Part shown: piece after piece, positions 11,596-35,468 of the stretch
Layout: the number at the start of each line of letters is the position of its first letter
How positions within the stretch are numbered: the stretch's first letter is position 1
Origin: a virus
Length of the DNA: 37,769 nucleotides
UHGV virus genome: UHGV-1372291
Direction: 5' to 3' (one strand)
Made by a program: the position numbers and the translations under genes
Notes under the pieces: generated by a model
Database searches by the model: none
What the model was told of the DNA's origin: nothing
Seen by the model: the letters and a program-made list of their open reading frames with translations, nothing else

Positions 11596-11610
11596 ATTCT
11601 CACACTCCTC

Positions 11611-13407: not shown

Positions 13408-13416
13408 TGTTGCCTC

Positions 13417-16085: not shown

Positions 16086-16103
16086 TTATCCCCCTTTTAT
16101 ACC

Positions 16104-16334: not shown

Positions 16335-16336
16335 CT

Positions 16337-17100: not shown

Positions 17101-17111
17101 TTTTACCCCTC

Positions 17112-17621: not shown

Positions 17622-17622
17622 A

Positions 17623-17886
17623 TTATGCCTCCTGTTCCCATTTATCTTTTTGAAATTTTTTATTAAATATTTTAGGTGGATTTACAAACCACTCTACACT
17701 GTCAAAGCCTGTATAGATATAGTTGTTAGGTTCTACTTTCTCATAATCTATCATTATACAGTCCTCAACTTTTCTAACTTGATGGTCTGATAATACCTCT
17801 GCTACTTCCTTATGGTTTTTACCATTAAAAAATACTGCTTTTACTCTGAAATTACTTTCAATATTTCTATATATCATTCCACTCAT
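17623..17886 (-). CDS. hypothetical protein (87 aa)
   Basis: ORF in a 1-nt spaced train. Confidence 0.3.
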   Translation of the reverse strand: MSGMIYRNIESNFRVKAVFFNGKNHKEVAEVLSDHQVRKVEDCIMIDYEKVEPNNYIYTGFDSVEWFVNPPKIFNKKFQKDKWEQEA

Positions 17887-18221
17887 TATTTCTTTTCTCC
17901 TTTTTTATCTTTATCAAATGGTAACTGTTCTTTTTTTATAGCTTCCTCTATCTCTTCTGGGCTTAGTCCTGCTTCAAATTTTTCAAGGAATTTATCATAA
18001 TCTACATTTTTATATTTTCCTTGAGATTTTTCACTATCAAAATATACTTGTAATGCTTGTTTCTTAGATAGTTTTATAGATATTTCTAAATCTCCATCTT
18101 TGTATTTTAAGATAACATTAGCATTACTTACTTGATGTCCAGAAGGAACTAACTTAGTTGTAGGTTTATATTTTTTTCTAAATGATGTATCTACAACCTC
18201 CATAACTTTAATATCTACCAT
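17886..18221 (-). CDS. hypothetical protein (111 aa)
   Basis: ORF overlapping its neighbours by 1-7 nt. Confidence 0.3.
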   Translation of the reverse strand: MVDIKVMEVVDTSFRKKYKPTTKLVPSGHQVSNANVILKYKDGDLEISIKLSKKQALQVYFDSEKSQGKYKNVDYDKFLEKFEAGLSPEEIEEAIKKEQLPFDKDKKGEKK

Positions 18222-18505
18222 TCTTCATCAACTCCTTTTAAAGCTCTTCTAGCTTTTTCTGTTTTATTTTTCTTTATCTTTTTTAATAAGTTTTCAATAC
18301 TAATTTCTTTCCAGCTCTCTGCTCCTCTTTCTAGTATTTTTATAGGATTTTTAGCTTTAGGTTTCATTCTAAAAAAATATCTAGCTGCCTCATACATAGT
18401 TATGAACGATTCCTTAAATTCCATTCTTTTATACTCTTCTCCATTTATAACTACTATTTCTTTGATTGATTCTACTATGTAGTTATAGCTTTCTAAATTT
18501 ATCAT
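18215..18505 (-). CDS. hypothetical protein (96 aa)
   Basis: ORF. Confidence 0.3.
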   Translation of the reverse strand: MINLESYNYIVESIKEIVVINGEEYKRMEFKESFITMYEAARYFFRMKPKAKNPIKILERGAESWKEISIENLLKKIKKNKTEKARRALKGVDEEW

Positions 18506-18616
18506 TGTTACCCCCTTTTTTGCTTATAATCTAATTAAAACATTCAAGTCTTTAAATGTTTTAACTAGAGCATAAGCTCTAGCTTTATGTGTGTTGTAAG
18601 TTATTTTAAGAAAGTT

Positions 18617-19066
18617 TTATTTTTTATGTGCCATTCCTAAAGCAAATCCAAGTCCATACCATATTTGATTTTTAACTCTTTCTAATAGAATTTCAGCTCC
18701 TATTTCCTCTGAATAGTTTTTATCATCTACACTAGAAGTTGATTCTATTCCAGTAAATCCATTAGCTAGTTTATATTCCATTACAGTAGTTTTCTTACCA
18801 AACATAATTTTAGTGTAGATATTTTTCTCTACTATGAAGTCATCTACTAATTTTTCTGGAATTTTATTATTCTCTATTTCATATGCTTGCTCTAAAAATT
18901 TATCTTTAGGACACATAGAAACATATCCATCTTCATAGAATACTTTGAATACTCTTTCATCTCCATCTTCATTAGCTGGTAACTCCCAACCTCTGCTTTG
19001 ACAATATTCTTTCCTACTCATTTCCTCTACTTCTACAACCTTAGTTGTTAGAAATTGCTTTTTCAT
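18617..19066 (-). CDS. hypothetical protein (149 aa)
   Basis: ORF with AGGAGG RBS 8 nt upstream. Confidence 0.35.
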   Translation of the reverse strand: MKKQFLTTKVVEVEEMSRKEYCQSRGWELPANEDGDERVFKVFYEDGYVSMCPKDKFLEQAYEIENNKIPEKLVDDFIVEKNIYTKIMFGKKTTVMEYKLANGFTGIESTSSVDDKNYSEEIGAEILLERVKNQIWYGLGFALGMAHKK

Positions 19067-19088
19067 TCCTACTACCTCCTACCAATTC

Positions 19089-19196
19089 CTACTTATTTTT
19101 TATCTTATAATCTCTTTTACATTTTCTATATCCCCATACAAAACCACCAGCTATTGCAATGACTGCTCCAAATAATTCAATTATTAATCTACTCAT
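19089..19196 (-). CDS. 35-aa membrane peptide (MSRLIIELFGAVIAIAGGFVWGYRKCKRDYKIKNK)
   Basis: ATG at 19194-19196 preceded by AGGAGG (revcomp of 19201-19206) with a 4-nt spacer. One TM helix plus a basic tail. Missed by the ORF track because of its size. Confidence 0.4.
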   Translation of the reverse strand: MSRLIIELFGAVIAIAGGFVWGYRKCKRDYKIKNK

Positions 19197-19205
19197 ATTT
19201 TCCTC

Positions 19206-19514
19206 CTATAAATCTACTTCTATTTTTTTTAATTGCTTTTCTAAAACTGCTATCATTTTATCTACAAATTCAGGTGTTTTAATACCTTGATAGTTCCCAT
19301 TTTCTTTTATTTTTTTGTGATATTCCAACTCTTGCCCCCAAATTTGTTTTAACATTTTTGCATACATTCTACATATTGCCTTTTTAGTTAGATCATCTAT
19401 GTCTTTTCTTTCTTTATTTTCTTGGTATAAATTATCCCATTCAGTTACAAAATACCCCTCCATTCCTGAGTCTAATTCTAATATAAATACATTTAAGCCT
19501 TTTATCTTTTCCAT
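19206..19514 (-). CDS. hypothetical protein (102 aa)
   Basis: ORF immediately downstream of the capsid terminator/attenuator hairpin. Confidence 0.3.
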   Translation of the reverse strand: MEKIKGLNVFILELDSGMEGYFVTEWDNLYQENKERKDIDDLTKKAICRMYAKMLKQIWGQELEYHKKIKENGNYQGIKTPEFVDKMIAVLEKQLKKIEVDL

Positions 19515-19533
19515 ATTTTCCTCCTTATAAAAA

Positions 19534-19561
19534 ATAGAGGGAAAATGCAGTATCCCTCTAT
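19534..19561 (-). terminator. stem-loop (attenuator/terminator) after the major capsid gene
   Basis: ATAGAGGGA-aaatgcagta-TCCCTCTAT, a 9-bp perfect stem. A T-run follows on the minus strand. Confidence 0.5.
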
Positions 19562-19598
19562 TCAGTTGTAATGGTTAAATTAAATTGTTGCTTCCTGT

Positions 19599-20864
19599 CT
19601 ATTCTGATTTTTTAGCTGCTTTTGTAGTAGTTGTTGCTGGTGCTTCTTGTGTTTCAGTAACTGCTGCTTGTTTGTTAGCTGCTCTTAATCTTTCTAGTTC
19701 TAACTCTTTTTCTACTCTCTCCATTCTCATTTTTTCAATCTCTTTTTCCTGCTCTAGTTGTTCATTATTTGCTAACGACATTGTATTCATAGCCATAGCA
19801 GATACTGGTTCTACTGAGGCTGCAGCTGCTCCTGTTGTTCTCTTATACTTGAAAAAGAATACTCCCTCTGGATTTAATAATTCTGTTGAGTTATACACTT
19901 CAACATCTAATAAGTATGATTTTTTATCAGCTATATAGTTAGCTTCTGGTGTTACTGATACATCTTTGTTATCTTGTCCAAAACTTCTTTCAACCATAAC
20001 TACAAAATATCCTACTCCTTCACTACCTGTTGGATATAAAGTTTTGTCAAATTGGAATAAGCTTTCTACATGTCCACCCATCAACATAGATAATGGTTTT
20101 CCTGTTTTTCTTGTTTCTCCCTCTCCAAAATCTTTACTTGAGAATCTTTCAGCATTTGCAAGCTCTGTATTTCCTTCTACACCAGACACTATAGCTATTC
20201 TCAATCCTTGAGCTTCTGCTGCTTCTTGAGCTTGTAACATCATTTGTCTGAATAGTTTTATATTTTCTGGAGTATCAAACTCTTTTGTTTCATCTCCGTA
20301 AAATTGACTTTCTGGAATAGTTAAATCAAATGTTTTGTTGTTATTGTCATAAACTGTTCTTTTCTTATTTGTTATACAATCTTTGAAAAGTTCAGCTATT
20401 CTTTTAGCACATTTTCCACGAGTTGCAGCTATTTGTGCATCTATTATTACCGATTTTTCATCTAGTTGAGAACGGTCGAAATCTCTTCTCTTAACATATA
20501 CAGGACATTCCATTCCTGTTGGATATACTCTAATACTTTGTAAGAAAGTTCCTGTATCTTGTCCTTTAACCTCTCCTGGTGTATAATTAGGTCCAGACAT
20601 AGCTTGCTTATCATCTATATCTCTAGCCTCTAATCTTCCAGATACATAGAATAAAGAATAAGCCTCTTTTGTTGAAGCTGATTTTTCAAACCAACCCTCA
20701 AGTGGCATTTTGTTTGTTGTATTTAAGGCTCTTTTTACACTATTTACATATTTAGCCTGTTCTCCTGCTGAAAGGTTTACGTTTCCGTATTCATATCCTC
20801 CAGCTCCAGCAAATAGCTGGATATTTAATCCTGTGCTTCCTAATAAAGTTTTTTCATTTCTCAA
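19599..20864 (-). CDS. major capsid protein (with cleavable N-terminal L27-like leader)
   Basis: 421 aa immediately downstream of the scaffold. N-terminus 'MRNEKTLLGSTGLNIQLFAGAGG'. The terminator hairpin directly after it is typical of a highly expressed capsid gene. Confidence 0.55.
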   Translation of the reverse strand: MRNEKTLLGSTGLNIQLFAGAGGYEYGNVNLSAGEQAKYVNSVKRALNTTNKMPLEGWFEKSASTKEAYSLFYVSGRLEARDIDDKQAMSGPNYTPGEVKGQDTGTFLQSIRVYPTGMECPVYVKRRDFDRSQLDEKSVIIDAQIAATRGKCAKRIAELFKDCITNKKRTVYDNNNKTFDLTIPESQFYGDETKEFDTPENIKLFRQMMLQAQEAAEAQGLRIAIVSGVEGNTELANAERFSSKDFGEGETRKTGKPLSMLMGGHVESLFQFDKTLYPTGSEGVGYFVVMVERSFGQDNKDVSVTPEANYIADKKSYLLDVEVYNSTELLNPEGVFFFKYKRTTGAAAASVEPVSAMAMNTMSLANNEQLEQEKEIEKMRMERVEKELELERLRAANKQAAVTETQEAPATTTTKAAKKSE

Positions 20865-20882
20865 GTATTCCTCCTTAAAATC

Positions 20883-21545
20883 TTATTTTATAAAATCCCA
20901 ATAAAATGGGTCATCTTGCTTTTTAGCTTGTGCATATTCTTTTAATTTATTCATTAAACCTTTATCATTTGTATCTAAAGATTGATTATAAGCCTCAATG
21001 AATCCATCATGTGTATAATCTGTTGAAAGCTGTGTTTTTCCAACTCCTACTACACTTCCTGTACTTCCTGCTTTCATTTCCATGTATTCCTTTAGGATTT
21101 GAGCTCCTATTGCATTTTCTGCCATAGCTCTATATACTATCTGTCTATCTGTGTCTTTCTCTGCTCCTATGAAGTTATTTATTGCTTCCATACTTGCATT
21201 AAGTTCTGGAGTGAAAGCTGCTTTTTGTTCTGCTAGATAAGCTTTTCTATCATCTAGTCTTGATTTAATGTACTCTGGAGTGTAACCTTTTTCTTGAGCC
21301 TCTGTGATATATGGTGCTATATCTCCAATCTCTTGATAATCTTCTGCTTTTATTCCTTCCCAAGTTAATGGATCTGCTTTAGGTTCTGTCCCTGCTCCAT
21401 TATCTCCACTTGGTTGTGGTGGTTCTCCCCCAGCTCCTGTATTTACTGTTGGCTCTGGATTTGGTGTAGGTTCTCCTCCTGTATCTCCTCCCTCTGCTCC
21501 TCCAAATAATTGGATATTAAATTTAAATCTTTCTTTATCAGTCAT
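20883..21545 (-). CDS. scaffolding protein (likely start MTDKERFKFNIQLFGG at 21545)
   Basis: Gly/Pro-rich N-terminus followed by a helical acidic body, located between portal and capsid. The ATG at 21543-21545 overlaps the upstream stop (ATGACTGA). The ORF-track start at 21578 is probably too long. Confidence 0.5.
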   Translation of the reverse strand: MTDKERFKFNIQLFGGAEGGDTGGEPTPNPEPTVNTGAGGEPPQPSGDNGAGTEPKADPLTWEGIKAEDYQEIGDIAPYITEAQEKGYTPEYIKSRLDDRKAYLAEQKAAFTPELNASMEAINNFIGAEKDTDRQIVYRAMAENAIGAQILKEYMEMKAGSTGSVVGVGKTQLSTDYTHDGFIEAYNQSLDTNDKGLMNKLKEYAQAKKQDDPFYWDFIK

Positions 21546-21759
21546 TTTCTTCTTTTGCCTCCTTTGTAAATATCTCAATATATAAACTATTTGCTCCTGT
21601 TATCTCCTTTACTTTACCTGTTGTATCAACTCCTTTTTCATTCATGATAGAAACTCTATTGAGTTCGAGCATTAAGTATAGTTCGATTAGTCTTTTTAAA
21701 GCTCCATCATCTCTATATCTTCTCTTTAACTCTTCGTACTCTTTTCTCTCTACTGTCAT
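21538..21759 (-). CDS. hypothetical small head-module protein (73 aa)
   Basis: ORF overlapping the portal stop (ATGA) and the scaffold start. Confidence 0.35.
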   Translation of the reverse strand: MTVERKEYEELKRRYRDDGALKRLIELYLMLELNRVSIMNEKGVDTTGKVKEITGANSLYIEIFTKEAKEEND

Positions 21760-23267
21760 TGCTCTATCATTCCCCCTTGTTGTTGTGCAGCTATCATAGC
21801 ATTCATTTCCTCAACTTGCTTTTCTGTTTCCTCTCCAGATTTCCACTCTTTGTTATTGATTCTAAACCTTTTTTGTTGAGCATTTATGTATTCTGCTTGG
21901 TTCATATTAGCTGCTGCAACTTGAGGTCCCAGAGTGCTTGCTATATTTTGGAAATACAACATATTTCTTTCAAGGTCATCTTGGTCTTGTGCTATTGTTA
22001 GTGCATTGTAGAATCTTATCTTTAATCTTGGATTTTCCTGTAAAGCTTTAATTTTAGATATATCTATAATGCTAATCTTTTGTAGACATTGGAAAACTTT
22101 TATAACTATCTCTCTTAAAAGTTCCCTTTGCATTAGTGCATATGTTGGCTCTATTTGCTTAGCGAACTCTGTTGTTACTAGCTGTGTTGTTGTAGCAGTA
22201 ACATTCTTTAGCTGGTCTAAGTTTTGAGCCGTTTCAAATATGTTGATGTAGAATATATCTCTTAAAAGTTCCTTGTACATATCCAGGTTAAAGAACTCCA
22301 TGTTAGCATTCTCTCCCCTGTTGAAAGGTATTATTTGATTTTGCCCTGGGGATTGTCCCATCATAGATATAGCTCCTGGCTCATCTATTCTTGAGTTCTG
22401 AATATATTTAGCTTGCCCATAACCTAAATAGCTTGGTCTAGCCTGTTTCTTAGCAATACGTCTGATGTTAGCTTTAACTTCTTTTAGCCCCTCAATCTCC
22501 ATTATCGCTTTAACACAAGGTCCTATACCATATGGACTATCTCCAATGCTTTCGTATCTAGCTATTATCCAAGGGTTATAGTCATCAATTCTATAATCTA
22601 AAATATCTGTAAACTCATTTGAAGTAGATACTACATAGTGAAACATTTTAGTTTCTTGGTCGTATATTGTACCTTCCCACAACTCAATCTCGTCATCTTG
22701 CGACATACTTTGAACTTTTTCAGAGTTATAAGCATTTTCTCCAAAAAGATTAAGAATCTGATGTTTTCTCACTTTACCTGCATTGTAGAATGTATCTCCA
22801 GGTTGTTTACCTCTTCTTTTAGTAAGATAAACATTTATATTGGGTACTGGTTGAAATTCCACAGGATTTGCAATTTTACCAGTAAATCTAACTTTGAATA
22901 CTGCTGTTCCTATTAGATAGTCCATAAGAATTACAGCTTTCTCTGTTTCAAAGTTAGAATTTTCTTGAATCTCATCAAATACTATTTCTGTTATTCGTCT
23001 AAAGATAATCTTGTCATCTCTTGATATATCTTCAAACCTTGGTGTTTCTATCCAAGCCCAGATATGATTACTATTAAGTATCATAGCTGATAACTTGTTA
23101 GCTAACTTAGTAGCATATGCTAGTCCTGTACTGTCTACACCATTTAAATTAATTTCTCTTGGTAGAAAATGTGTTCTAGCTTTCAAATACCAAGCTAGTA
23201 TTACATTTCTTTCCTGTTGTGCCTCCTGGAATCTACTACGAAATAGATTTTTAATTCTATCTTCCAT
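21756..23267 (-). CDS. portal protein
   Basis: 503 aa, directly upstream of the scaffold and capsid genes; size and position fit a portal. No catalytic motifs are expected for this protein. Confidence 0.55.
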   Translation of the reverse strand: MEDRIKNLFRSRFQEAQQERNVILAWYLKARTHFLPREINLNGVDSTGLAYATKLANKLSAMILNSNHIWAWIETPRFEDISRDDKIIFRRITEIVFDEIQENSNFETEKAVILMDYLIGTAVFKVRFTGKIANPVEFQPVPNINVYLTKRRGKQPGDTFYNAGKVRKHQILNLFGENAYNSEKVQSMSQDDEIELWEGTIYDQETKMFHYVVSTSNEFTDILDYRIDDYNPWIIARYESIGDSPYGIGPCVKAIMEIEGLKEVKANIRRIAKKQARPSYLGYGQAKYIQNSRIDEPGAISMMGQSPGQNQIIPFNRGENANMEFFNLDMYKELLRDIFYINIFETAQNLDQLKNVTATTTQLVTTEFAKQIEPTYALMQRELLREIVIKVFQCLQKISIIDISKIKALQENPRLKIRFYNALTIAQDQDDLERNMLYFQNIASTLGPQVAAANMNQAEYINAQQKRFRINNKEWKSGEETEKQVEEMNAMIAAQQQGGMIEQ

Positions 23268-23276
23268 AGTATCTCC

Positions 23277-23552
23277 TTATCCTATTGTCTGGGTACTACT
23301 CTTCTTAAGTAGTCCTAGATTACCTTGTCTTAGGCTCTCCTGGAATTGTATTGCGGTGTTTCTTTGCTTGTCTTTTTCTGCTTGCTGCTTTTTAGCCTCT
23401 GCCTCTTGTTGCTTTTTTAGTTCCTCTTCCATTCTCTTTTGCTGCTTTTTAGTACCACTAAAGTCAGTAGCTCCAAGCGTAATGGTATCAACAAGTCCTC
23501 CTAATACATTTCCACCACCACCAAACAATTGGATATTTGGTTTAAATTTTAT
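23277..23552 (-). CDS. small head-module protein with L27/Prp-like N-terminal motif (KFKPNIQLFGGGG), probable non-canonical ATA start
   Basis: The ORF track starts it at TTG 23526-23528. The in-frame upstream sequence encodes IKFKPNIQLFGG, nearly identical to the scaffold leader RFKFNIQLFGG. An ATA codon at 23550-23552 lies 9 nt after AGGAGG. Confidence 0.4.
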   Translation of the reverse strand: MKFKPNIQLFGGGGNVLGGLVDTITLGATDFSGTKKQQKRMEEELKKQQEAEAKKQQAEKDKQRNTAIQFQESLRQGNLGLLKKSSTQTIG

Positions 23553-23553
23553 A

Positions 23554-24033
23554 TTATCTCTCCTCCTTTTCCCATGCTTCTACATCATAGAATTTATCAA
23601 GGATTTTTCTTGCTTTTCTAAAAGTCCCAACTTTTCTAAAGTTATATCTTTTAAAAAACTTCATAGCCAGTTTATATGCTGGACTTTCTGGAACTATATT
23701 TAATTCTATTTTTTTATAAAGTTTATCAAGCATACTACAAAATTTAACGAAATCATCTAAGAACTCTTTTCTCTCTGCGAGGTTATCTCCTAGAAAAATA
23801 AAGTCTAGTGATATTATTTTGTCATGTGGTATGTTATAGATACAGCCCATATAACCTACTATGTGTCCATCATGGATAGATAACATCATTAGTTCATCTA
23901 GCCCTTTTATATTTAGGTCATCTAATGAACCTGTGAAAAACTTATACTTTTCAGTGTTTGCTTGTTGCTCCTCTTCTAGTATTTCTTTTAGCACTAGAAA
24001 AGCTTTATCTTCTCTTGATACTCCCTCAAGCAT
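23554..24033 (-). CDS. hypothetical protein, possibly GNAT-fold acetyltransferase
   Basis: C-terminal 'PAYKLAMKFFKRYNFRKVG' resembles the GNAT motif-B region. Weak. Confidence 0.25.
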   Translation of the reverse strand: MLEGVSREDKAFLVLKEILEEEQQANTEKYKFFTGSLDDLNIKGLDELMMLSIHDGHIVGYMGCIYNIPHDKIISLDFIFLGDNLAERKEFLDDFVKFCSMLDKLYKKIELNIVPESPAYKLAMKFFKRYNFRKVGTFRKARKILDKFYDVEAWEKEER

Positions 24034-24522
24034 TTACACAACCCCCTCAACTTGTAAGAATTTCTTAGTCTTGTCATCTCTTTGCTCTTGCTTGTCCTCT
24101 GTCTTTTCTCCCAGCTCCAATGAAACCTCAATGTTATTAGTTCCACCTTGCTTGTCCCAGCCTGCCAGAGTTTCTATTCTTTGCGACAGTTGAACTGCTG
24201 CTTTAAAATCTACAAATTTACCTGTTTTTTCTAGTAGTCCTTTGTCTGTAAGTCTTATAATCTTTGTATCTTCTAGTCCTGCTGCCTGTTCAAATAGCCC
24301 TTGCATTATTGCTAAGTGTCCCATTTTATCTCTTCCAAGCATAAAGTCCACCATTTCCAAGTGTTCCTCTATTTGCTTGTTGATCTTCTTACTACTCATT
24401 AGCTTGTGCATTAGCTTTAGGTCGAATGGGATTCCAGCAGCTTGCATGGCTTTCATTCCATTTTTACAAACTAGAAATGATGATATGAACTTCTCTTCTT
24501 GCTCTTTGGTTATTCCTGCCAT
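24034..24522 (-). CDS. terS: terminase small subunit-like protein (Terminase_2/P27 family-like)
   Basis: 'ITKEQEEKFISSFLVCKNGMKAMQAAGIP' matches the LTxKQxxF...NGxxAaxxAG HTH pattern of small terminases; 162 aa. Confidence 0.5.
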   Translation of the reverse strand: MAGITKEQEEKFISSFLVCKNGMKAMQAAGIPFDLKLMHKLMSSKKINKQIEEHLEMVDFMLGRDKMGHLAIMQGLFEQAAGLEDTKIIRLTDKGLLEKTGKFVDFKAAVQLSQRIETLAGWDKQGGTNNIEVSLELGEKTEDKQEQRDDKTKKFLQVEGVV

Positions 24523-25598
24523 TCTAACTCTGCCCCCTCTTCTCCTAGTCTTATTTTTATACTAACTTTAGCTATTTTTTTGAGTAGTTTTTCCAATCTT
24601 TCAAAGTTCTTGGAATAAGACTTTTTAATCTCTCCAAGTTTTTCTAACTCTTCCAGCTTTTCAATAACTTTCTTTTTCTGGTATTGAATAGCTCTTTTTT
24701 TAATACTCATATTATTTTCAGTCATTACAACATCAAGTAATCTAATATCAAATATTAAATACTCTTTCATTATTAGTCTTTCTGCTAGCCCCTTAGTTCC
24801 TGGAGCAACTATCTTTTTCAATTCTTTGATATCATAGTTTAACTCTTTGACTATCTGCTCTGTAAGTATTGCTCCTATTGTTTTTCTAAGTGCTGCAGCT
24901 AGATTATCTTTAGTTATTCCACCTAGATGATTTAAATTATAGGTCTTGAGGTGTGGAGGTCTTAGCGTCAACTCTCCTCTTAATGCTTGTCTTTTCTTTG
25001 CTACCTCTTTTCCTGTATCTTCCATCTCTTTTCTTTTGGAATAGATTTTAAAATAGCTAGTTGTTTCTCTGGACTTTTTCCCTCTCTCTTTGAAGTCTAC
25101 TCCATCAAGTTCCAATCTTTTTTTATTGTCTGTATCAAAATACATTCTTGAAGTTGGAAAGATATTTTTATATGCTCTATAGATTAAATTTAGAACTTGA
25201 TAATAATTTCTGATGTTCTCAACTTCTAATTGGTTTGATAAGTCCAGACTAACTACTCTAATATCTTCTCCTTTTACAAGTTCCCCTGTTATGCTTCTAA
25301 GTATTAAGATTAATTCTTGATGTACTTGAGCAATAACTTTTTGATTTGTTACTAGCTTGTAATTGTCATTGTTATCATATCTGGAATAACTGAAAGAGAT
25401 TAATATATTTTTTTTCTCATCAATGCTGATGTAGTTTAACCAGTTATATTTTTTTAATCTGGTGTTTTTAAATATTATTTTTTTATTTTCATTTCGTGCC
25501 TCTTCTTCCAGTAGTATGCTAGTTGATTGAATTATGAAGTCTAGTTCATTCAACTTGGCTGGATAACTTATACTTGCAGTATCTACAATCCAACCCAC
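24510..25598 (-). CDS. hypothetical protein (362 aa), first gene of the long leftward operon; possibly DNA-binding or replication related
   Basis: ORF with a basic C-terminal coiled-coil; no motif recognised. Confidence 0.3.
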   Translation of the reverse strand: MGWIVDTASISYPAKLNELDFIIQSTSILLEEEARNENKKIIFKNTRLKKYNWLNYISIDEKKNILISFSYSRYDNNDNYKLVTNQKVIAQVHQELILILRSITGELVKGEDIRVVSLDLSNQLEVENIRNYYQVLNLIYRAYKNIFPTSRMYFDTDNKKRLELDGVDFKERGKKSRETTSYFKIYSKRKEMEDTGKEVAKKRQALRGELTLRPPHLKTYNLNHLGGITKDNLAAALRKTIGAILTEQIVKELNYDIKELKKIVAPGTKGLAERLIMKEYLIFDIRLLDVVMTENNMSIKKRAIQYQKKKVIEKLEELEKLGEIKKSYSKNFERLEKLLKKIAKVSIKIRLGEEGAELEWQE

Positions 25599-27221: not shown

Positions 27222-27539
27222 TTATTGTTTTAAAAATTTAATAGCATCTAACATATGATTTAATTTTTTATTCTCTTCTTTTAATCTTTTTACCTCTTCT
27301 ATCATTTCTGGGCTCATTCTATCGAAGTTCCAAGCTTCCCATGCTTCATTAGTTTCTTTCTCATTCAATTTTAAAAACTCTATTATTTTTTGCCAAGTTT
27401 CATATTTAGCAGTCTTTTTCCCATTTCTCATATAACTTAAATATACTTGGCTTATTCCTGCATACTCTGCCATATCTTTTAAATTTACATTTTTAGCAAC
27501 TGAATATTTTTTTAAAAAAATCTCTGTATTAGTCATCAT
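27222..27539 (-). CDS. XRE-family HTH repressor-like protein (CI-like position)
   Basis: 'NLKDMAEYAGISQVYLSYMRNGKK' HTH. Divergent from the consensus early promoter. Confidence 0.55.
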   Translation of the reverse strand: MMTNTEIFLKKYSVAKNVNLKDMAEYAGISQVYLSYMRNGKKTAKYETWQKIIEFLKLNEKETNEAWEAWNFDRMSPEMIEEVKRLKEENKKLNHMLDAIKFLKQ

Positions 27540-30687: not shown

Positions 30688-30696
30688 AATAAAAAT

Positions 30697-30723
30697 GGCA
30701 GGTTTATTCCTGCCACTTTTATT
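30697..30723 (+). terminator. rho-independent terminator of the early operon
   Basis: GGCAGG-tttatt-CCTGCC followed by acttttatt. Confidence 0.6.
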
Positions 30724-31060
30724 AAAGAATCTTGAATAACATATGACGATTAAAAAAGCATCTTATATGGGGTTAAAAATCTGGATACAGTAGTATAATA
30801 TACTTTTAGGTATAAGTCAATATCTTTTTAAAATTATAACACTGTGAAATTTTGTCAAAGTAATTTTTAAGTATTTATTTTATTGGTTTTTATAGTGTGA
30901 AGTTTTGTCAGTTAAAAACTACAAAATCCAGAATATAACTACATATAATTTTATAATTGTAGTTAATTCTTTTCCCTTTTAGAAGAATCTTTATTCTTTT
31001 ATTCTTTTATATATTTCGGCACCTTCAAAAGCTAGAAAAAAAGCCACTTTATAAAAAGAT

Positions 31061-31181
31061 AAAGGTACAAAATCCAACTTTCAAAGGTACAAAATCCAGA
31101 AAATAAAGGTACAAAATCCAACTTTTAAAGGTACAAAATCCAATTATAGAAGGACAAAATCCAATTATAAAGGTACAAGAT
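31061..31181 (+). repeat. iteron array of plasmid-type origin (6 direct repeats, 22-bp period)
   Basis: AAAGGTACAAAATCCA(A/G) starts at 31061, 31083, 31105 and 31127. A degenerate copy is at ~31149 and a partial one at 31169. An extra copy is at 31295-31311, and an inverted half-copy (TGTACCTTT) is at 31220-31228. An AT-rich stretch spans 31180-31290. Confidence 0.75.
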
Positions 31182-31316
31182 ATTTTATAATGTACTTTTA
31201 ACGACATTTATTAGAATGATGTACCTTTATTATAAATTTATATAATAGTTAAAAACTTAGTGTAAATAGGGGTTGAAGAGTATTTTAAAAAGATAAAGGT
31301 ACAAAATCCAGAAAAT

Positions 31317-31361
31317 AAAGGTACATATATATTGACATTGTACCTTTGATTAAGTTATACT
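31317..31361 (+). promoter_or_regulatory. rep promoter with operator palindrome AAAGGTACA-N13-TGTACCTTT overlapping -35 TTGACA
   Basis: Perfect 9-bp inverted repeat made of iteron half-sequence. Embedded ttgaca at 31332-31337 and a tatact -10-like element at 31356-31361. Confidence 0.55.
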
Positions 31362-31390
31362 AAAATTAGTGAAATTTTTGGAGGGAATAT

Positions 31391-32515
31391 ATGAGTCAAG
31401 AAAAATATAATCTAATACATCATAAAGATTTCCATAATCTCCAATTACAAAATTATTCAGTAAAAGAAAGAGCAGTTTTTTTAGCTCTTTGCTTAAAGAT
31501 TATGGAACAGGAAGATGAAGTTGTAACTTTTAAAGTTTCAGAGATTTCAAAAATTGCAAATTATTCTGCAAGAAAAAAAGGAGATAATATTTATAGTTTT
31601 TTAAAAGAATTAAGTGATAAGCTTTTAAAATTACAGGTTATGCAAATAAGAAAAGATGAAGGATTTACAAATATGGTCTTGTTTCCAACCTTTTCAGTAG
31701 ATGAGAAAGAAAAAACAGTTAGAATAAGAATAAATCCAGACTATAAATATTTGTTAAATCATTTACAAGCTCCTTATACAATTCAAGCTTTGATAGAATA
31801 TTCTAATTTAAAATCTGGATATTCACAACTAATGTATTCTATTTTGAAAAAGTGGAATAAAATAAAAAAAGTAACTATAACTCTTGAAGATTTTAGAAGA
31901 GAATTAGGAGTTCCAGAAAGCTATGATACAGCAGTTATAAATAAAAGAGTATTGCCTCCTATTATGAAAGAGTTACCACAATATTTTGAAGGTTTGAAAG
32001 TAAAAAAAATAAAAGATGGTAAATTTATAAGTGGGTTTGAGTTTACCTGGAAAGATAACAAGGTTGATGATGTAGTAGTTGATGAAGAGGAAATAGAGAT
32101 TTCAGAAGAGTTACTATCAGCTATCGAGAAAGCAGAGAAAAATAGATTTATAAAACCTTTCTTAACTGATGATAATATAATAAAACTTTTAGATAAATTT
32201 AGCCAAGAGCAATTAGAAAAAGGATTGAAAGCTGCTTATGATTTAATTAAAACAGAATTTACAAGTCTTAATTATTTGATAAAAGTTATTGAAGATAGAT
32301 TGAATAAACCTAAAAGAAAAATAGTTATAAGAAGAACTAAGGAAGCAGAAAAAATAAAAGAAGTTGAAGAGCCAGTAGTCAAGAAAAAAACAACTCCACT
32401 AACTAATGAAGAATATCAAAATGCTATGAAAATATATCAAGCTACTGGAGAGGATTTTGGTTATGAACCAGAGGAAGTAAGAGAGTATATAAAAAAATAC
32501 AAGGATTTAATATAG
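31391..32515 (+). CDS. rep: iteron-binding replication initiator (Rep_3/RepB-like)
   Basis: N-terminal 'NLQLQNYSVKERAVFLALCLKI' matches the Rep_3 NxLxxAxYxLSxxExRL motif. Placed immediately downstream of iterons and an AT-rich region. Confidence 0.65.
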   Translation: MSQEKYNLIHHKDFHNLQLQNYSVKERAVFLALCLKIMEQEDEVVTFKVSEISKIANYSARKKGDNIYSFLKELSDKLLKLQVMQIRKDEGFTNMVLFPTFSVDEKEKTVRIRINPDYKYLLNHLQAPYTIQALIEYSNLKSGYSQLMYSILKKWNKIKKVTITLEDFRRELGVPESYDTAVINKRVLPPIMKELPQYFEGLKVKKIKDGKFISGFEFTWKDNKVDDVVVDEEEIEISEELLSAIEKAEKNRFIKPFLTDDNIIKLLDKFSQEQLEKGLKAAYDLIKTEFTSLNYLIKVIEDRLNKPKRKIVIRRTKEAEKIKEVEEPVVKKKTTPLTNEEYQNAMKIYQATGEDFGYEPEEVREYIKKYKDLI

Positions 32516-32524
32516 GGGGGTAAA

Positions 32525-33283
32525 ATGAAAATAATATCATTCATAACAGAAAAAGGTGGCACTGGTAAGACTACTGGTGCCAGAGAAGTTGCTGGGGTAT
32601 TATCTCTAGTTCATAACAAAAAAGTTTTGCTTATTGATTGCGACTTTCAACAAAATCTAACTGAAAGTTTAATAGAAGCAGACCAAGAAAAAAATATATT
32701 TAGAGCTATAAAAGAGAAAGATTTAAAAGGAAATATAATTCCTATTGAAAGAGATGGAAAACATATATTAGATTTAATACCTGCAAGTCTTAATTTAAAG
32801 GATTTAGAATATAAAAAAGATAGTGTTGATATGGAGATGATTTACCTGGATTTAAAAAGGGGACTAGAGCAACTCCAAGAATATGACTATATAATTATAG
32901 ATTGTAGACCAGATATGAGAGCAATAGAAAGGGCTGTGTTAAAGTGTAGTAATTATGTTATCACTCCTGTTGAAGCTCATCTATTTAGTTTTAGAGGGTT
33001 TGAATTATTGGAGAACTTTATACAAGCTCTTAAAAAAGATTTAAACACTCCATTCATTCATTTTGGTTATATAAATAGGCTACAAAATGATAAAGAGATA
33101 TTAGAAGCCACTGAAGATGTCAGAAATTCTTTTGAAAACATATTAGATACTCCTATAAGAGATAATCTTAAAATATTTAAAGCCTCACAGACAGGACATT
33201 TTATAATAGAATATAGTTCTACATCAAATGGGGCTAAGGATTTTAAAGCTCTTACAAAGGAGTTGTTAAATAAATGGCAATAA
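32525..33283 (+). CDS. parA: ParA/Soj-family partition ATPase
   Basis: Deviant Walker A 'KGGTGKTT' at the N-terminus; 252 aa. Confidence 0.8.
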   Translation: MKIISFITEKGGTGKTTGAREVAGVLSLVHNKKVLLIDCDFQQNLTESLIEADQEKNIFRAIKEKDLKGNIIPIERDGKHILDLIPASLNLKDLEYKKDSVDMEMIYLDLKRGLEQLQEYDYIIIDCRPDMRAIERAVLKCSNYVITPVEAHLFSFRGFELLENFIQALKKDLNTPFIHFGYINRLQNDKEILEATEDVRNSFENILDTPIRDNLKIFKASQTGHFIIEYSSTSNGAKDFKALTKELLNKWQ

Positions 33284-33939
33284 AAATAAATAGAAAACCT
33301 ATAATTTTAAAAAAGAAAGAAAATACAGAAGTAATTATTCCAGAAAAAAATGACATAGAAGATATATTGAAATATGATTATAACAAATTGGAAAATTTTT
33401 CAGATGATGATAAAAATCAATTAATTATATTTGAGAAAAGTATTATCACTAAAAAAGAAAATATCTCTTCTTTAGCACTACAAATAGGACAAAACTTAGA
33501 AGAGGCAAGAAAACTATTTGATAGATACTCTGAAAATCCAAGTTCATATATGGAGTGGTACCAAGCTTTAGGATTTAATAAAGACCAAGTATCACTACTT
33601 AGAGGGAGATATAAGTTATCTTTAAGCTATCCACAATACAACAATTTAATTTCAGACTTTTCAGACAGAGAAGTAAAAGCTTTAGTGAATAAAAAGGTTA
33701 ATGTAAGAATCCTTGAGAATATTTTATCTTCTGGAATAAGAACAGATAAAGAGATAAGAAAAGCTATTTCGAGCATGCTCGAAATAGAAGATGCCGAGAT
33801 AGTAGAGGAATCTGAAAAAGATAAGCTGGTATCCAGACTATCGGAGGTAGAGGCGAAAATCAGAAAATTAGAGGAAGAGTTGAAAGAATTGAAAACTGTT
33901 AAGGCTGAACTAAAAGAAAAAATAAAGGGGTTGAGTTAA
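33274..33939 (+). CDS. putative partition DNA-binding protein (ParB/ParG-like adaptor)
   Basis: Overlaps the parA stop. Basic N-terminus and a coiled-coil C-terminus. Assignment is by position only. Confidence 0.4.
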   Translation: MAIKINRKPIILKKKENTEVIIPEKNDIEDILKYDYNKLENFSDDDKNQLIIFEKSIITKKENISSLALQIGQNLEEARKLFDRYSENPSSYMEWYQALGFNKDQVSLLRGRYKLSLSYPQYNNLISDFSDREVKALVNKKVNVRILENILSSGIRTDKEIRKAISSMLEIEDAEIVEESEKDKLVSRLSEVEAKIRKLEEELKELKTVKAELKEKIKGLS

Positions 33940-33953
33940 TGAAATAAAAAAAT

Positions 33954-33986
33954 AGCTGGAAATAAATCCAGCTATTTTGATTTTTT
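33954..33986 (+). terminator. rho-independent terminator of rep-par operon
   Basis: AGCTGGA-aataaa-TCCAGCT followed by attttgatttttt. Confidence 0.7.
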
Positions 33987-34343: not shown

Positions 34344-34799
34344 TTATTTTTTCTTGTATTCTTGATATTGAACTAATACTTTTTTTATTTTCTCTGGAAT
34401 AGGCACTCCACAGATACTTGCATTTTCTAATATAGAAAGTCCCTCATTTGAAATAAAAACTCCTATTGTTAAAGTCTTTATTCCTAATTTACTACCAAGT
34501 AGTATGTCTAAGTGGTATGCTAATACTATAACTAGAATTATCATAACCTTTTTTAACATTCCTATTATCCCTAGTTTACTATTAGCAGTACAAGTAATAT
34601 AAGCTTTAATAACTCCAGATATATAATCAACTGCCATAAGAATTAAAAGTATTCTTAAAGCTTCATCTTGTCCACCTGTAATCATAAAGATAAAGGCTAC
34701 TAAACTTCCTATTCCTATTGCTACACAATTACTTAAAATTTTTATTACATCAACTAACAACCAAAAGAAATCTGTTGCTATTCTAGTAAAATCTCCCAT
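34344..34799 (-). CDS. phage holin (TcdE/LL-H family-like, 3 TM)
   Basis: 151 aa with three hydrophobic segments and a charged C-terminus (QYQEYKKK). Adjacent to the endolysin. Confidence 0.6.
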   Translation of the reverse strand: MGDFTRIATDFFWLLVDVIKILSNCVAIGIGSLVAFIFMITGGQDEALRILLILMAVDYISGVIKAYITCTANSKLGIIGMLKKVMIILVIVLAYHLDILLGSKLGIKTLTIGVFISNEGLSILENASICGVPIPEKIKKVLVQYQEYKKK

Positions 34800-35050
34800 T
34801 AATTTCCTCCTATCATATAGTCTAGTATCTTTTCAAAGATATTGTAAAACCAAGGTGTTATTTGTAAATTTAAGATATTATCTAGTATAAGTAATAATAG
34901 TAATATCATAAAGGCAGTACCAAGGTAATAGTTAAAACTTGTTAGTTTTTGCTTTTCTATCTCTTGGTCTACTTCTGCATTTCTAGTCCTTTTAAAGATT
35001 ATGCCTAGAGTATCTTTTATAACTTCTATTACTGAACCTATAATATTCAA
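34799..35050 (-). CDS. small membrane protein (holin-like or lysis accessory)
   Basis: 83 aa with one strong TM 'AFMILLLLLILDNIL'. Overlaps the holin start. Confidence 0.4.
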   Translation of the reverse strand: MNIIGSVIEVIKDTLGIIFKRTRNAEVDQEIEKQKLTSFNYYLGTAFMILLLLLILDNILNLQITPWFYNIFEKILDYMIGGN

Positions 35051-35063
35051 GTTATCACTTCCC

Positions 35064-35468
35064 TTAATCTTCCATCAACTCAAAATGTCCTCCATCAAAT
35101 GAGCCTCTTGCTATCTCATCATCATATTTACCATTCATATTCCAATCTCCACCCCATCTAACTTTAATACCAAGCTTTTCAGCCTCTTCTTTTAGTATAT
35201 CAGCTACTTTTTTAAATCCCTCTAAGTCATTCCAAGATTTAAAAGGGTATGGGATAAAGTCAAAAGCATATGATTTAGGTTTTTTACAATGCTTAGATTT
35301 ATTTGTCCATGATGTTCCTTTAGCTTGGTTTGCCTTTGCTTCTTCCTCTGTTCTAGCTCCATCTATTATAGAGAAGTCTATTCTTTTTATAGCTTGGCTT
35401 GCTATTAATATTAATCTATCATCACACTCTTCTAAGTGTTTTAAACTTCTTTCGCTAAATTTATACAT
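35064..35468 (-). CDS. endolysin, peptidase M15 family (L-alanyl-D-glutamate peptidase / VanY-like)
   Basis: 'SKHCKKPKSYAFDF' (H...D) and 'WGGDW...FDGGHFE' match the zinc-binding H-x-D ... H motifs of M15 peptidases. Confidence 0.65.
   Translation of the reverse strand: MYKFSERSLKHLEECDDRLILIASQAIKRIDFSIIDGARTEEEAKANQAKGTSWTNKSKHCKKPKSYAFDFIPYPFKSWNDLEGFKKVADILKEEAEKLGIKVRWGGDWNMNGKYDDEIARGSFDGGHFELMED

Follow-up and report, generated by a model that had tools for sequence, protein, structure and literature searches.

A gut Fusobacterium phage with a T7-like short-tailed virion that is probably maintained as a plasmid by a Rep_3/iteron and partition cassette

The viral genome UHGV-1372291 carries an iteron origin, an initiator gene and partition genes among its phage genes, and the question is how such a phage is maintained in its host. 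A preliminary description had read this module as the mark of a phage-plasmid. We analysed the window (the whole stretch of DNA, 37,769 nucleotides), and with a probability of roughly three in four it represents a complete temperate phage of gut Fusobacterium, which has a T7-like short-tailed virion and is kept as a plasmid by a Rep_3/iteron replication and partition unit acquired from Fusobacteriaceae plasmids. The phage most likely persists as a plasmid because it has a plasmid origin, an initiator and a partition system but no integrase. Every sequence element that had been named is present, the circle is closed and the cassette is homologous to plasmids, and together these appear to bear out the phage-plasmid interpretation.

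The window is the whole circular genome, and a collagen-like tail-fibre gene runs in frame across its joined ends. The circle measured 37,922 bp in two independent assemblies that differed in k (k = 119 and k = 127) after the k-long terminal overlap was removed, and the window is without 153 bp of collagen-like repeat that is present in the assembled circle. A circular contig and missing host junctions had been proposed as checks, and both were seen: the genome closed, and no host junction or host gene was found in any contig or locus examined. No contig above 50 kb carried exactly this Rep or its near-identical variant P0091 (97% identical; 84 collection blocks), and no podovirus-type contig above 50 kb was seen. 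A circular assembly is equally expected from a circularly permuted or terminally redundant virion genome, and missing host flanks in a metagenome are not decisive because actively replicating phage DNA can swamp the reads from integrated junctions. The joining of phage and plasmid genes has next to no chance of being an assembly chimera: the source is a short-read metagenome and assemblies tend to break at iterons and collagen repeats, but the same gene order, with 100% identity across both cassette boundaries, recurred in independent assemblies, made from different samples with different assemblers, and long-read contigs of relatives have the same cassette context. The phage was also found in a genome assembly labelled Fusobacterium (GCA_037419695.1), and chromosomal proteins of Fusobacterium mortiferum fall in the 90%-identity cluster of its endolysin; the host is a human gut Fusobacterium, most likely F. 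mortiferum.

The virion and lysis genes were located as follows.

225..25598, minus strand, virion and packaging block (PHROG, Pfam and fold-level matches)
1613-3124, minus strand, TerL, within the virion block
11611-13407, minus strand, tail nozzle ('Tail Nozzle' 8ck1)
13417-13920, minus strand, adaptor, within the virion block
21756-23267, minus strand, portal (PF12236, 7.6e-29)
34344-34799, minus strand, holin, in the lysis block 34344..35468
35064-35468, minus strand, M15 endolysin, in the same lysis block

The virion block further holds tail fibres, a scaffold gene, a gene at the capsid position, a TerS-like gene and three consecutive internal proteins of 1842, 665 and 178 aa, and PHROGs 376, 394 and 2 were matched in it. 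The set of virion, packaging and lysis genes by which a phage-plasmid is recognised is complete (portal, capsid-position gene, nozzle, adaptor, internal proteins, TerL, fibres, holin and endolysin), and the podovirus-like order that had been described, with portal-scaffold-capsid, a giant internal protein (1842 aa), TerL and fibres, was identified in all its parts. The PF12236 portal, the nozzle, the adaptor, the portal-scaffold-capsid order and the three consecutive internal proteins, including the one of 1842 aa, are shared with T7-like (Autographivirales-type) virions. Unlike in T7-like phages, the capsid and tail genes are set apart by about 5 kb of small genes, among them SSB, NTP pyrophosphohydrolases and the recombinase, and the portal is only 22-25% identical to those of cultured phages. 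No phage RNA polymerase or DNA polymerase family was matched genome-wide (PHROG, Pfam and precomputed Pfam), and as judged from the sequence the T7 likeness is limited to the virion module, without the polymerases that would mark a member of the Autographivirales.

Two elements of the early region bear on whether the phage is temperate.

27222..27539, minus strand, candidate lysogeny repressor, a 105-aa HTH protein (PHROG transcriptional regulator/repressor families; Pfam HTH_3 precomputed for locus L001)
30696..30715, plus strand, terminator-like hairpin TGGCAGGTTTATTCCTGCCA with a T run, which closes the upstream early operon (RadC ... Gam-like ... Sak)

The repressor candidate is divergent from the early operon, and an early promoter (TTGACA-17-TATAAT, 27642-27670) matches the consensus at 12 of 12 positions. 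The hairpin would insulate the rep unit on its left side. The HTH protein is short and has no S24 domain, which would suit a virulent or pseudolysogenic phage whose Rep_3 origin serves lytic replication only and whose ParA and ORF3 organise or position infecting DNA, with no stable plasmid prophage. Circular contigs without host flanks are equally expected from such a phage, and the Rep_3 origin would also feed lytic growth in any case, because PHROG, Pfam and precomputed Pfam gave no further initiator and no helicase or polymerase in the whole genome. However, near-identical sibling genomes have a LexA/CI-type HTH + Peptidase_S24 repressor at the position of the window's HTH gene, and among the siblings the immunity region has been exchanged as an allele, as in heteroimmune phages; these S24 repressors fit a temperate lifestyle. 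The occurrence of the phage in a Fusobacterium assembly also speaks against a purely lytic phage, as do the insulation of the rep-parA-orf3 unit by terminators and its own Rep-operated promoter, which is not the early promoter. With the plasmid ancestry of the cassette and the second initiator of some relatives, both described below, we regard a phage that is never a stable plasmid as unlikely.

The other way for a temperate phage to persist is integration, and one gene of the window is relevant to it.

14085..14783, minus strand, small serine recombinase, 232 aa (Pfam Resolvase 7.9e-20; PHROG 125 'DNA invertase' 4.7e-36)

No tyrosine (PF00589) or large serine integrase was found on the whole circle (Pfam, PHROG, NCBIfam and precomputed Pfam), so the claim of a phage without integrase holds to this extent, but it had overlooked the small serine recombinase, which is the only recombinase in the genome. 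A temperate phage could integrate by this enzyme or by a host recombinase, with Rep and Par as a lytic-phase replicon or an inactive remnant; a site-specific recombinase is indeed present, its weak second-rank PHROG match is the 'integrase' family phrog_95 (2.7e-10), and tyrosine recombinases occur in some relatives. But the 232-aa protein has the size and domains of a resolvase or invertase, and its closest solved relatives are Sin/Tn552 Bin3 (1.3e-10) and gamma-delta resolvase (2e-9), then Mpi/Gin (Gin, 1e-6), not large serine integrases. The tyrosine recombinases, of which the window's genome has none, lie among inverted tail-fibre-tip cassettes in most relatives examined, which makes them shufflon-like, and a second one was seen in the early region of loci L017 and L018. 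The lack of host genes in all loci and of podovirus-type contigs above 50 kb also argues against integration. Moreover, the Rep/Par cassette appears to be under selection, because it is intact, 97% conserved among siblings and retains DNA signals encoded by rare codons. Integration is an improbable explanation on these grounds, and the small serine recombinase could serve as a multimer resolvase, a tail-fibre DNA invertase or both; its identity to the recombinases found alongside the cassette on other phage backbones is 61-63%.

The origin precedes the initiator gene and is made up of four elements.

30975..31055, no strand, left origin element (TRF, GC content, conservation in relatives)
31056..31180, plus strand, iteron array (four exact, one degenerate and one half copy of AAAGGTACAAAATCCA, 22-bp period)
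31181..31290, no strand, AT-rich spacer (19% GC), with the inverted half-iteron TGTACCTTTATT at 31220-31231
31295..31361, plus strand, rep operator and promoter (iteron, inverted half-sites, -35/-10)

Exact copies of the 16-mer AAAGGTACAAAATCCA lie at 31061, 31083, 31105 and 31127, in 22-bp steps, and the next two are imperfect, a degenerate one with 3 mismatches at 31148 and a half one near 31168; Tandem Repeats Finder counted 5.6 units of 22 bp over 31059-31178. When as many as 3 mismatches were allowed, the 16-mer had 12 matches in the window against 1.09 expected, and 12 were reached in none of 100 shuffles. Six iterons of 22-bp period had been claimed, and the period was right and the count close, with a further exact copy in the operator (31295-31310). 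The array recurs in relatives, equally far from rep. Two AT-rich stretches are present where one had been noted, with GC contents of 17% at 30975-31015 and 19% at 31181-31290, compared with 30% for the whole window. The left element contains AT-rich 8-mer repeats, 2.6 copies of TTTATTCT at 30990-31010, followed by TTTCGGCACC...AAAGCCAC; it is kept in four relatives (L005, L009, L016 and L017), is recognisable in the true plasmid NZ_CP092524.1 and is a candidate DNA-unwinding or host-factor region. The module had been taken to start at 31040, but the comparison with relatives moves its left boundary about 65 nt further left, to 30975. In the operator, the inverted half-sites AAAGGTACA (31317-31325) and TGTACCTTT (31339-31347) straddle the -35 box TTGACA (31332-31337) of the rep promoter (TTGACA-18-TATACT, 31332-31361; -10 at 31356-31361), which matches the consensus at 11 of 12 positions, and a ribosome-binding site GGAGGG lies at 31380-31385. 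This layout is conserved in L005, L009 and L016 and agrees with the autoregulatory operator palindrome that had been proposed. No DnaA box (TTATCCACA, up to 1 mismatch) was found between 30700 and 31400, and over the whole window the motif shows no enrichment; many but not all Rep_3 iteron replicons have one. By its WH1 and WH2 domains, tandem direct iterons beside rep (about 17-22 bp in this class), operator geometry and adjoining AT-rich regions, the locus reads as a Rep_3 iteron replicon.

The genes and signals downstream of the promoter complete the unit.

31391..32515, plus strand, rep, Rep_3-family initiator, 374 aa (Pfam Rep3_N 2.9e-18, Rep3_C 1.4e-10)
32525..33283, plus strand, parA, small Walker-type partition ATPase, 252 aa (Pfam AAA_31 3.7e-35 and CbiA; PHROG 164)
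33274..33939, plus strand, orf3, candidate ParB-like partner, 221 aa (predicted fold)
33764..33787, no strand, perfect 24-bp palindrome CTATTTCGAGCATGCTCGAAATAG inside orf3, candidate parS
33949..33978, plus strand, bidirectional terminator hairpin that closes the rep-parA-orf3 unit, right cassette boundary

Both Pfam domains of the expected Rep_3-type initiator were matched in Rep, Rep3_N with 67 bits (cut-off 22.4) and Rep3_C with 41.7 bits (cut-off 21.1); WH1 spans residues 10-153 and WH2 164-220, followed by a conserved C-terminal extension of about 150 aa. We found 89 Rep homologues, and the best tblastn matches were Fusobacteriaceae plasmid initiators with 35-42% identity. The described parA was likewise confirmed by its deviant Walker A motif KGGTGKTT (residues 10-17) and its AAA_31 match; it has no N-terminal HTH, its match to PHROG 164 ('ParA-like partition protein') was 2.9e-47, and the NCBIfam matches to PrgP and ParA_partition were below the cut-off. 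ParA-like genes are also known from phages that are not known as plasmids. The start of orf3 overlaps the parA stop by 10 nt. In the prediction for ORF3, residues 1-28 are basic and disordered, a helical core covers about 44-174 and the C-terminal part (181-220) is a coiled coil, and its predicted fold is nearest to the ParB/KorB DNA-binding domain; no ParB N-terminal (ParB/Srx, CTP-binding) domain was found in it, with no match to PF02195 or to any other Pfam family. The small parB-like gene that had been placed after parA is this one, and its predicted fold and the conserved internal palindrome make it a candidate for the DNA-binding partner of ParA.

The palindrome is unique in the window, where none is expected by chance, and its pattern was matched in 27 of the 39 fetched loci, each time in exactly one copy and always inside orf3. 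Its variants remain symmetrical about a centre of CATG, CGCG or AGCT although the peptide they encode varies (SSML, STAA, SAAV, SRAL), rare codons are used across it, and the true plasmid p6 has CAAATCGAGAGCTCTCGATTTG at the equivalent place. The palindrome is a candidate centromere (parS), and its proposed place inside the gene of the binding protein would be like that of B. subtilis, whose parS lies inside spo0J. The helical DNA-binding core predicted for ORF3 is like those of Spo0J/ParB and KorB, and its proposed site is likewise a palindrome, but ORF3 differs from them in having no N-terminal CTPase domain, in its length of 221 aa with a C-terminal coiled coil, and in its pairing with a ParA of the small type-Ib-like kind, which usually works with ribbon-helix-helix proteins.

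The cassette (30975-33978; ori, rep, parA, orf3) has terminators on both sides. Nucleotide homology to other phage backbones begins at 30974/30975, which is the left recombination boundary, and homology to the sibling genomes stops at 33949. Contractile-tailed phages have 85% nucleotide identity over ori, rep and the first part of parA, and the remaining cassette diverges; the loci sampled from them (about 18-21 kb each) otherwise share only a fragment of the tail-fibre tip and a 536-bp stretch within the 344-aa gene that adjoins the tail-fibre region. These contractile-tailed phages also carry a separate RepA_N initiator beside the cassette, which fits Rep_3 as the replicon of the plasmid state. 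The Rep of a true plasmid of Cetobacterium somerae, NZ_CP092524.1 (9.4 kb), is homologous with 42% identity, and this plasmid has the same left origin element and a 22-bp iteron array of different sequence. ParA and an ORF3 homologue are found on the true 48-kb Cetobacterium plasmid p6, with the same overlap and next to an iteron-bearing initiator. The nearest sequence relatives of the replicon are thus Fusobacteriaceae plasmids, NZ_CP092524.1 and AP017970.1 (F. varium), but the Rep identity is only 35-42%, the iterons have another sequence and the replicon here lies in a phage genome. With the Rep_3 theta replicons (pPS10 RepA, R6K pi, F RepE, pSC101 RepA) it shares WH1 and WH2, AT-rich flanks, tandem 22-bp direct iterons before rep and an inverted half-iteron operator on the rep promoter, and it differs from them in the C-terminal extension of Rep and in having no recognised DnaA box.

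For the plasmid prophage, a mechanism can be proposed by analogy with pPS10, R6K, F and P1-type replicons. Rep monomers would bind the 22-bp iterons and open an adjoining AT-rich stretch, where host replication proteins would load, and Rep dimers would bind the inverted half-sites on the -35 box and repress their own promoter, which would keep expression low and independent of the lytic promoters. The ParA ATPase and a ParB/KorB-like ORF3 dimer on the orf3 palindrome would segregate the low-copy circles at division, and the HTH repressor would hold the lytic genes silent. Resolution of multimers, inversion of the tail-fibre tip, or both may fall to the small serine recombinase. The plasmid origin, and then Sak/Gam/SSB recombination-dependent replication, would feed lytic growth too. 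No toxin-antitoxin module was recognised in the genome.

The P1 plasmid prophage has RepA with iterons, ParA-ParB-parS, dimer resolution by Cre/lox and Cin inversion of tail-fibre tips. The functional layout is shared: the initiator is regulated by iterons, a Walker ParA comes with a candidate DNA-binding partner and a candidate centromere, and there are a site-specific recombinase, a putatively invertible tail-fibre tip and a repressor-run lytic programme. The phage had been assigned to the P1/N15/phiSSU5 kind, and this holds for the functional likeness but not for descent, as no homology to P1, N15 or SSU5 was found. It also differs from P1 (a comparison taken partly from the summary in PMC10983915) in its size of 38 kb against about 94 kb, in its short-tailed T7-like virion against a myovirus, in a partner protein without the ParB N-terminal domain, and in that neither an origin or initiator of its own for lytic growth nor an addiction module was recognised. 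The defined phage-plasmid types are P1, N15, SSU5-related, AB and cp32, plus singletons, and they come mostly from Enterobacterales, the rest often from monoderms (tyPPing preprint, 10.1101/2025.08.29.673033). Like them, the present genome joins a complete set of phage genes to replication and partition genes of plasmid type and has no integrase, but it is related to none of them. No paper describing a Fusobacterium phage-plasmid was found in a full-text literature search. The crAssphage Carjivirus communis has a genome of about 97 kb. It has been proposed as a gut phage-plasmid (PMC10983915) and is likewise a prevalent, integrase-less, short-tailed gut phage that would persist extrachromosomally. 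In contrast, its host phylum is Bacteroidota, its replication genes are two RepL genes, and no iteron/Rep_3 and ParA/ParB-like cassette is described there (PMC10983915).

The 3-kb unit could be a portable cassette for a plasmid lifestyle, which we put forward tentatively: it would recombine between short-tailed and contractile-tailed Fusobacterium phages and true plasmids, with rep and par halves separately exchangeable, its acquisition would make an integrase-less phage a plasmid prophage, and in the short-tailed lineage it would be the sole replicon. If this is true, a T7-like virion would be propagated in the short-tailed lineage entirely by a plasmid theta origin and recombination-dependent replication. 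Phage-plasmids as a kind are already known, and this one would be new for the Fusobacteriota and for the T7-like virion module.

Profile and family assignments across the genome showed that UHGV-1372291 is a phage. It encodes a portal protein of the T7 gp8 family (PF12236, 7.6e-29), a relative of the tail nozzle protein, an adaptor, TerL, collagen-like tail fibres and three consecutive internal proteins of 178, 665 and 1842 aa, together with lysis genes (holin and M15 endolysin), early genes (RadC, a Gam-like/Gp157 protein, Sak annealase and SSB) and HTH regulators. Genes for a tape measure, sheath or tube were not found in the genome, nor were any for a polymerase, primase, helicase or further initiator. 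The plasmid-type maintenance module that the preliminary description reported in this phage is real, and its parts are as follows:

30696-30715, terminator-like hairpin that ends the upstream early operon
31059-31178, iteron array, a 22-bp unit in 5.6 copies by Tandem Repeats Finder
31332-31361, rep promoter, TTGACA-18-TATACT
31391-32515, rep, 374 aa
32525-33283, parA, 252 aa
33274-33939, orf3, 221 aa, overlapping parA by 10 nt
33764-33787, perfect 24-bp palindrome within orf3
33949-33978, bidirectional terminator-like hairpin that ends orf3

Reading of the window from 30700 to 34400 located exact copies of AAAGGTACAAAATCCA at 31061, 31083, 31105 and 31127 with the claimed period of 22 bp, and the array continued with two imperfect copies, one degenerate (31148) and one a half copy (about 31168). 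Beyond the array, the sequence recurs exactly once more, at 31295. When up to three mismatches were allowed, the window contained 12 iteron matches against 1.09 expected, and none of the shuffles reached 12. The AT-rich stretch of the preliminary description was found on both sides of the array (17% and 19% GC, compared with 30% overall), and its operator palindrome corresponded to the inverted half-sites AAAGGTACA (31317) and TGTACCTTT (31339), which straddle the -35 box of the rep promoter. This promoter was among the three best promoter matches in 9 kb and is followed by a GGAGGG ribosome-binding site and the ATG at 31391. The search for a DnaA box was negative.

The three genes also agreed with what had been claimed for them. 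Rep matched Pfam Rep3_N (2.9e-18) and Rep3_C (1.4e-10), both well over the cut-off, as expected of a Rep_3-type initiator. Past WH2, residues of about 221-374 (window 32050-32515) form a C-terminal extension of about 150 aa, which is well conserved across the phage-borne homologues (for example EKAEKNRFIKPFL and LNYLIKVIED) and matched no family. ParA contains the deviant Walker A motif KGGTGKTT and matched Pfam AAA_31 and CbiA and the PHROG family "ParA-like partition protein" (2.9e-47); its NCBIfam matches, PrgP and ParA_partition, were below cut-off. ORF3, the product of the small gene after parA, had no significant Pfam match, only coiled-coil matches below cut-off. Seventeen of its homologues were aligned, and its structure was predicted (pLDDT 78); the model shows a basic disordered N-terminus followed by a helical core, with a long coiled coil at the C-terminus. 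The top two Foldseek matches of this model were ParB-parS complexes. Sequence searches of the PDB, run for Rep and for the ORF3 profile, returned no useful match; the fold comparison alone was informative. The predicted fold gives moderate, consistent support to ORF3 as a ParB/KorB-like DNA-binding protein lacking the ParB N-terminal domain.

A dyad-symmetry search found the perfect palindrome CTATTTCGAGCATGCTCGAAATAG within orf3. The pattern ATTTCGR-N6-YCGAAAT was matched in 27 of the 39 fetched loci, as a single copy that always lay within orf3, and CAAATCGAGAGCTCTCGATTTG occupies the equivalent place in the ORF3 homologue of a true Cetobacterium plasmid. The palindrome centre is CATG, CGCG or AGCT across orf3 variants, and since each of these is self-complementary, no more than one pair of the dyad is ever mismatched. 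The peptide encoded there varies (SSML, STAA, SAAV or SRAL), and the site uses codons rare in this genome, namely TCG (2.4% of Ser), CTC (1.7% of Leu) and GCG (1.1% of Ala). Among four IMG/VR contigs of about 37 kb (L024, L040, L041 and L049), the centre tracked the orf3 type. The loop of an RNA hairpin does not require self-complementarity, so the kept self-complementary centres point to a DNA site for a dimeric protein. We propose that the palindrome is a candidate parS bound by ORF3. Two 24-nt hairpin repeats at 34108-34155 had also been considered as parS and were rejected, because 33985-34233 is genome-specific and absent from siblings (near-identical short-tailed genomes) with near-identical ParA and ORF3. 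No conserved element was found 3' of orf3 across the relatives compared.

The homology block shared with relatives runs from 30974/30975 to 33949. With terminators on both sides and its own Rep-operated promoter, the unit is insulated, and such an arrangement would fit genes that need expression during lytic-gene repression. Next to it, a candidate small RNA of about 240 nt (34190 to 33945) lies on the minus strand within 33945-34230, extending from a strong promoter (TG + TTGAAA-17-TATAAT, 34225-34197) to the terminator at 33978-33949. Its body contains the hairpin repeats at 34108-34155, is GC-richer than the surroundings (42%) and folds better than shuffles (z = -3.2); no Rfam family was matched, and the siblings carry an 85-aa ORF in place of this genome-specific segment. 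A different non-coding stretch, of about 300 nt and also GC-richer, precedes the serine recombinase gene of L025, a contractile-tailed relative (13607-14088; also in L016 and L017), and is absent from the window. It has promoter-like and terminator-like ends and may be another structured RNA.

Relatives of the cassette were found in true plasmids. The Rep of NZ_CP092524.1, a 9.4-kb circular plasmid of Cetobacterium somerae, was 42% identical to the phage Rep, and upstream of its gene stand a recognisably similar left element (...TTCTTTTAAATACTTTCGGCA...), then seven iterons of 22 bp with a different sequence (TTATCCCGTACAAAAAACGGTA), then a promoter. By this order, the entire origin layout is homologous between phage and plasmid, and the iteron sequence differs in step with the divergence of Rep. 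In p6, a 48-kb C. somerae plasmid without phage genes, a ParA of 30% identity is followed, with overlap, by an ORF3 homologue (43%), and this par pair adjoins a different putative initiator with its own repeats. Rep's best plasmid relatives were all from Fusobacteriaceae. Megablast gave no match for the module among plasmids or for 25 kb of the window among phages; homology is confined to the protein level or to metagenomes. A tblastn search of plasmids with the portal protein returned only a 22% Legionella match, and by this search none of the deposited "plasmids" is this phage. Scanning GTDB genomes with the Rep alignment found nothing, and an iteron-pair scan found only two small MAG-binned contigs, labelled Cetobacterium and "Sarcina". 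One member of the Rep cluster was deposited solely as "MAG TPA: DNA REPLICATION protein [Caudoviricetes sp.]".

The cassette was also found in phages with another virion. Rep, ParA and ORF3 with the same iterons at the same distances were present in contractile-tailed phages of 41-48 kb (Baseplate_J and sheath initiator proteins; L009, L016-L018 and L025-L032), which also encode a RepA_N initiator, and the cassette was further found in an element type of 50-70 kb. L016-L018 were 85% identical in nucleotide sequence to the window over 30974-32702, and the rest of these loci had in common with it only 536 bp (within a gene of 344 aa next to the tail-fibre region) and part of a tail-fibre tip. 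Among the IMG/VR contigs, L024 had a Rep of 97% identity with ParA of 54% and ORF3 of 58%; L041 had a Rep of 78%, a ParA of 99% and an ORF3 identical across 192 aligned residues; L040 and L049 combined the 54%/58% par genes with another Rep_3 (27%). The spread over these backbones indicates that the cassette is mobile, and the combinations indicate that its rep and par halves recombine separately. IS110 and IS21 insertions were seen in L025.

Comparison with the siblings (L012-L015 and L033-L036), which are 94-98% identical over most of the genome, gave signals of a temperate phage. The siblings have an HTH+Peptidase_S24 repressor at the immunity position, plus a DnaJ-like gene, and UHGV-1372291 has there a 105-aa HTH protein, a 243-aa protein without assigned function and RadC. 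All of 26006-28515 is a swapped allele, as would be expected for heteroimmune temperate phages. An early promoter with a 12/12 consensus match faces the repressor gene. An intergenic repeat of about 100 bp occurs three times in the early operon (28229-28331, 29261-29363 and 29978-30080; 71-87% identical), the first and third with a terminator-like hairpin CCCCAAGAG(C/T)CTTGGGG, and these may be regulated terminators or processing sites.

When the ends of the window (1-62 and 37769) were joined, a single ORF ran through the collagen-like (Gly-X-Y) tail-fibre gene. Two independent contigs, L001 and L004, matched the window at 100% identity in the fetched parts, and both span this junction, where each adds the same 153 bp of collagen repeat, which brings the fibre gene to 355 aa and the circle to 37,922 bp. 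Their lengths of 38,041 (k=119) and 38,049 (k=127) each equal 37,922 + k, and the coordinates imply identical first and last k bases. Such an overlap, derived here from the coordinates, reads as the signature of a circular path in de Bruijn assembly. A circular contig of about 40-60 kb had been anticipated, and two assemblies close at 37,922 bp. A plasmid should give a circle, but so should a phage genome that is circularly permuted or terminally redundant.

Table. Sizes of contigs carrying proteins of the element and its relatives
Query; contigs or blocks; longer than 50 kb
This exact Rep; 8 contigs read; none
Virion protein of 665 aa; 8 contigs read; none
P0091, a Rep variant of the same 90% cluster; 84 blocks, 34 of them at 20-50 kb; none
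Rep P0002 (91% identity); 43 blocks; none
Contractile-tailed-type ORF3 P0144; 122 blocks; one, 83.7 kb
Rep P0009 (74% identity); 11 contigs read; 3 blocks at 50-200 kb, with two long-read contigs fetched (50.0 and 70.9 kb)

The contigs longer than 50 kb contained phage-type genes only, within the parts fetched. The lack of host junctions suggests an extrachromosomal state but does not settle it, since an assembly can be dominated by free phage DNA.

The precomputed Pfam matches of L001 and L004 span the whole circle, and the sole recombinase among them is a Resolvase-domain protein, a serine recombinase of 232 aa (14085-14783), in agreement with the claim that no tyrosine or large serine integrase is present. 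It is at the same location in all short-tailed siblings examined and 61-63% identical to the recombinases that travel with the cassette in other backbones. Its nearest solved structures were the Sin/Bin3 plasmid resolvase (1.3e-10) and gamma-delta resolvase (2e-9), with Gin further away (1e-6); PHROG assigned it as a DNA invertase, and the best NCBIfam match, Mpi invertase, was below cut-off. Its role is possibly multimer resolution, inversion or both, and integration by it seems unlikely because of the recombinase type and the absent junctions. ARAGORN found no tRNA gene and Rfam no family, which leaves no tRNA-type att site. Upstream of the recombinase gene, AAAAAGTAT[CT]AAAA occurs twice in direct orientation, 26 nt apart (14871-14911, minus strand), and the same pair lies ahead of the orthologue in the contractile-tailed L009. 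The pair may serve as an operator or as a site bound by the recombinase (res).

About 22 kb from the recombinase, the tail-fibre tip at 36552-37540 looks invertible. Between inverted repeats (36552-36579/37513-37540, 28 nt, 86%; 36628-36673/37419-37464, 46 nt, 80%) lies an alternative C-terminus of the tail fibre, without a promoter, which is encoded on the + strand (FKNFCPFKVGDIYL...HMWLRLT, then stop) and faces the expressed one, and the predicted inverted junction had an exact match in two metagenome contigs of related phages (L052 and L053). The contractile-tailed relatives have a tyrosine recombinase amid several inverted Gp10_C tail-fibre-tip cassettes, a shufflon-like arrangement.

As to the host, the 90%-identity cluster of the endolysin includes chromosomal proteins of Fusobacterium mortiferum (strain ATCC 9817 among them), the portal cluster includes a RefSeq protein labelled F. 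gonidiaformans, and a UniRef ORF3 of 50% identity is labelled F. mortiferum. In the Fusobacterium-labelled assembly GCA_037419695.1 the phage is found on a 12-kb contig with phage genes throughout, and the Fusobacteriaceae origin of Rep's best plasmid relatives is in line with such a host. The source samples were human gut metagenomes. Maintenance of the P1/N15/SSU5 kind had been suggested for this phage; the functional parallel to P1 stands (iteron initiator, ParA with partner and centromere, recombinase, invertible fibre tip), but no homology to P1, N15, SSU5 or any deposited phage was detected. Taken together, the circle, the absent junctions, the plasmid-homologous cassette and the S24 repressors of the siblings make a phage-plasmid the best-supported reading of UHGV-1372291, as first supposed, with a probability of about 0.75. 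Defined phage-plasmid types are mostly from Enterobacterales, and the others are singletons or loose groups, often from monoderms (10.1101/2025.08.29.673033). crAssphage has been proposed as a gut phage-plasmid, and its replication genes differ (PMC10983915). No description of this element or of Fusobacterium phage-plasmids was found in the literature searched.

If this reading is true, the range of phage-plasmids, so far well studied mainly in Enterobacterales and some monoderms, would take in Fusobacteriota as well as a phage whose virion module is T7-like. The occurrence of the cassette in differing virion types and its resemblance to plasmids make a clear, testable case of lifestyle-module exchange between plasmids and phages, and genetic tools for Fusobacterium may find in the 3-kb cassette a self-contained replicon with stable partition. 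The element is common in human gut assemblies, with its proteins on well over 100 contigs, and how it lives therefore matters for Fusobacterium ecology in the gut; a phage-plasmid state would help explain the persistence of common integrase-less, "temperate-looking" gut phages.
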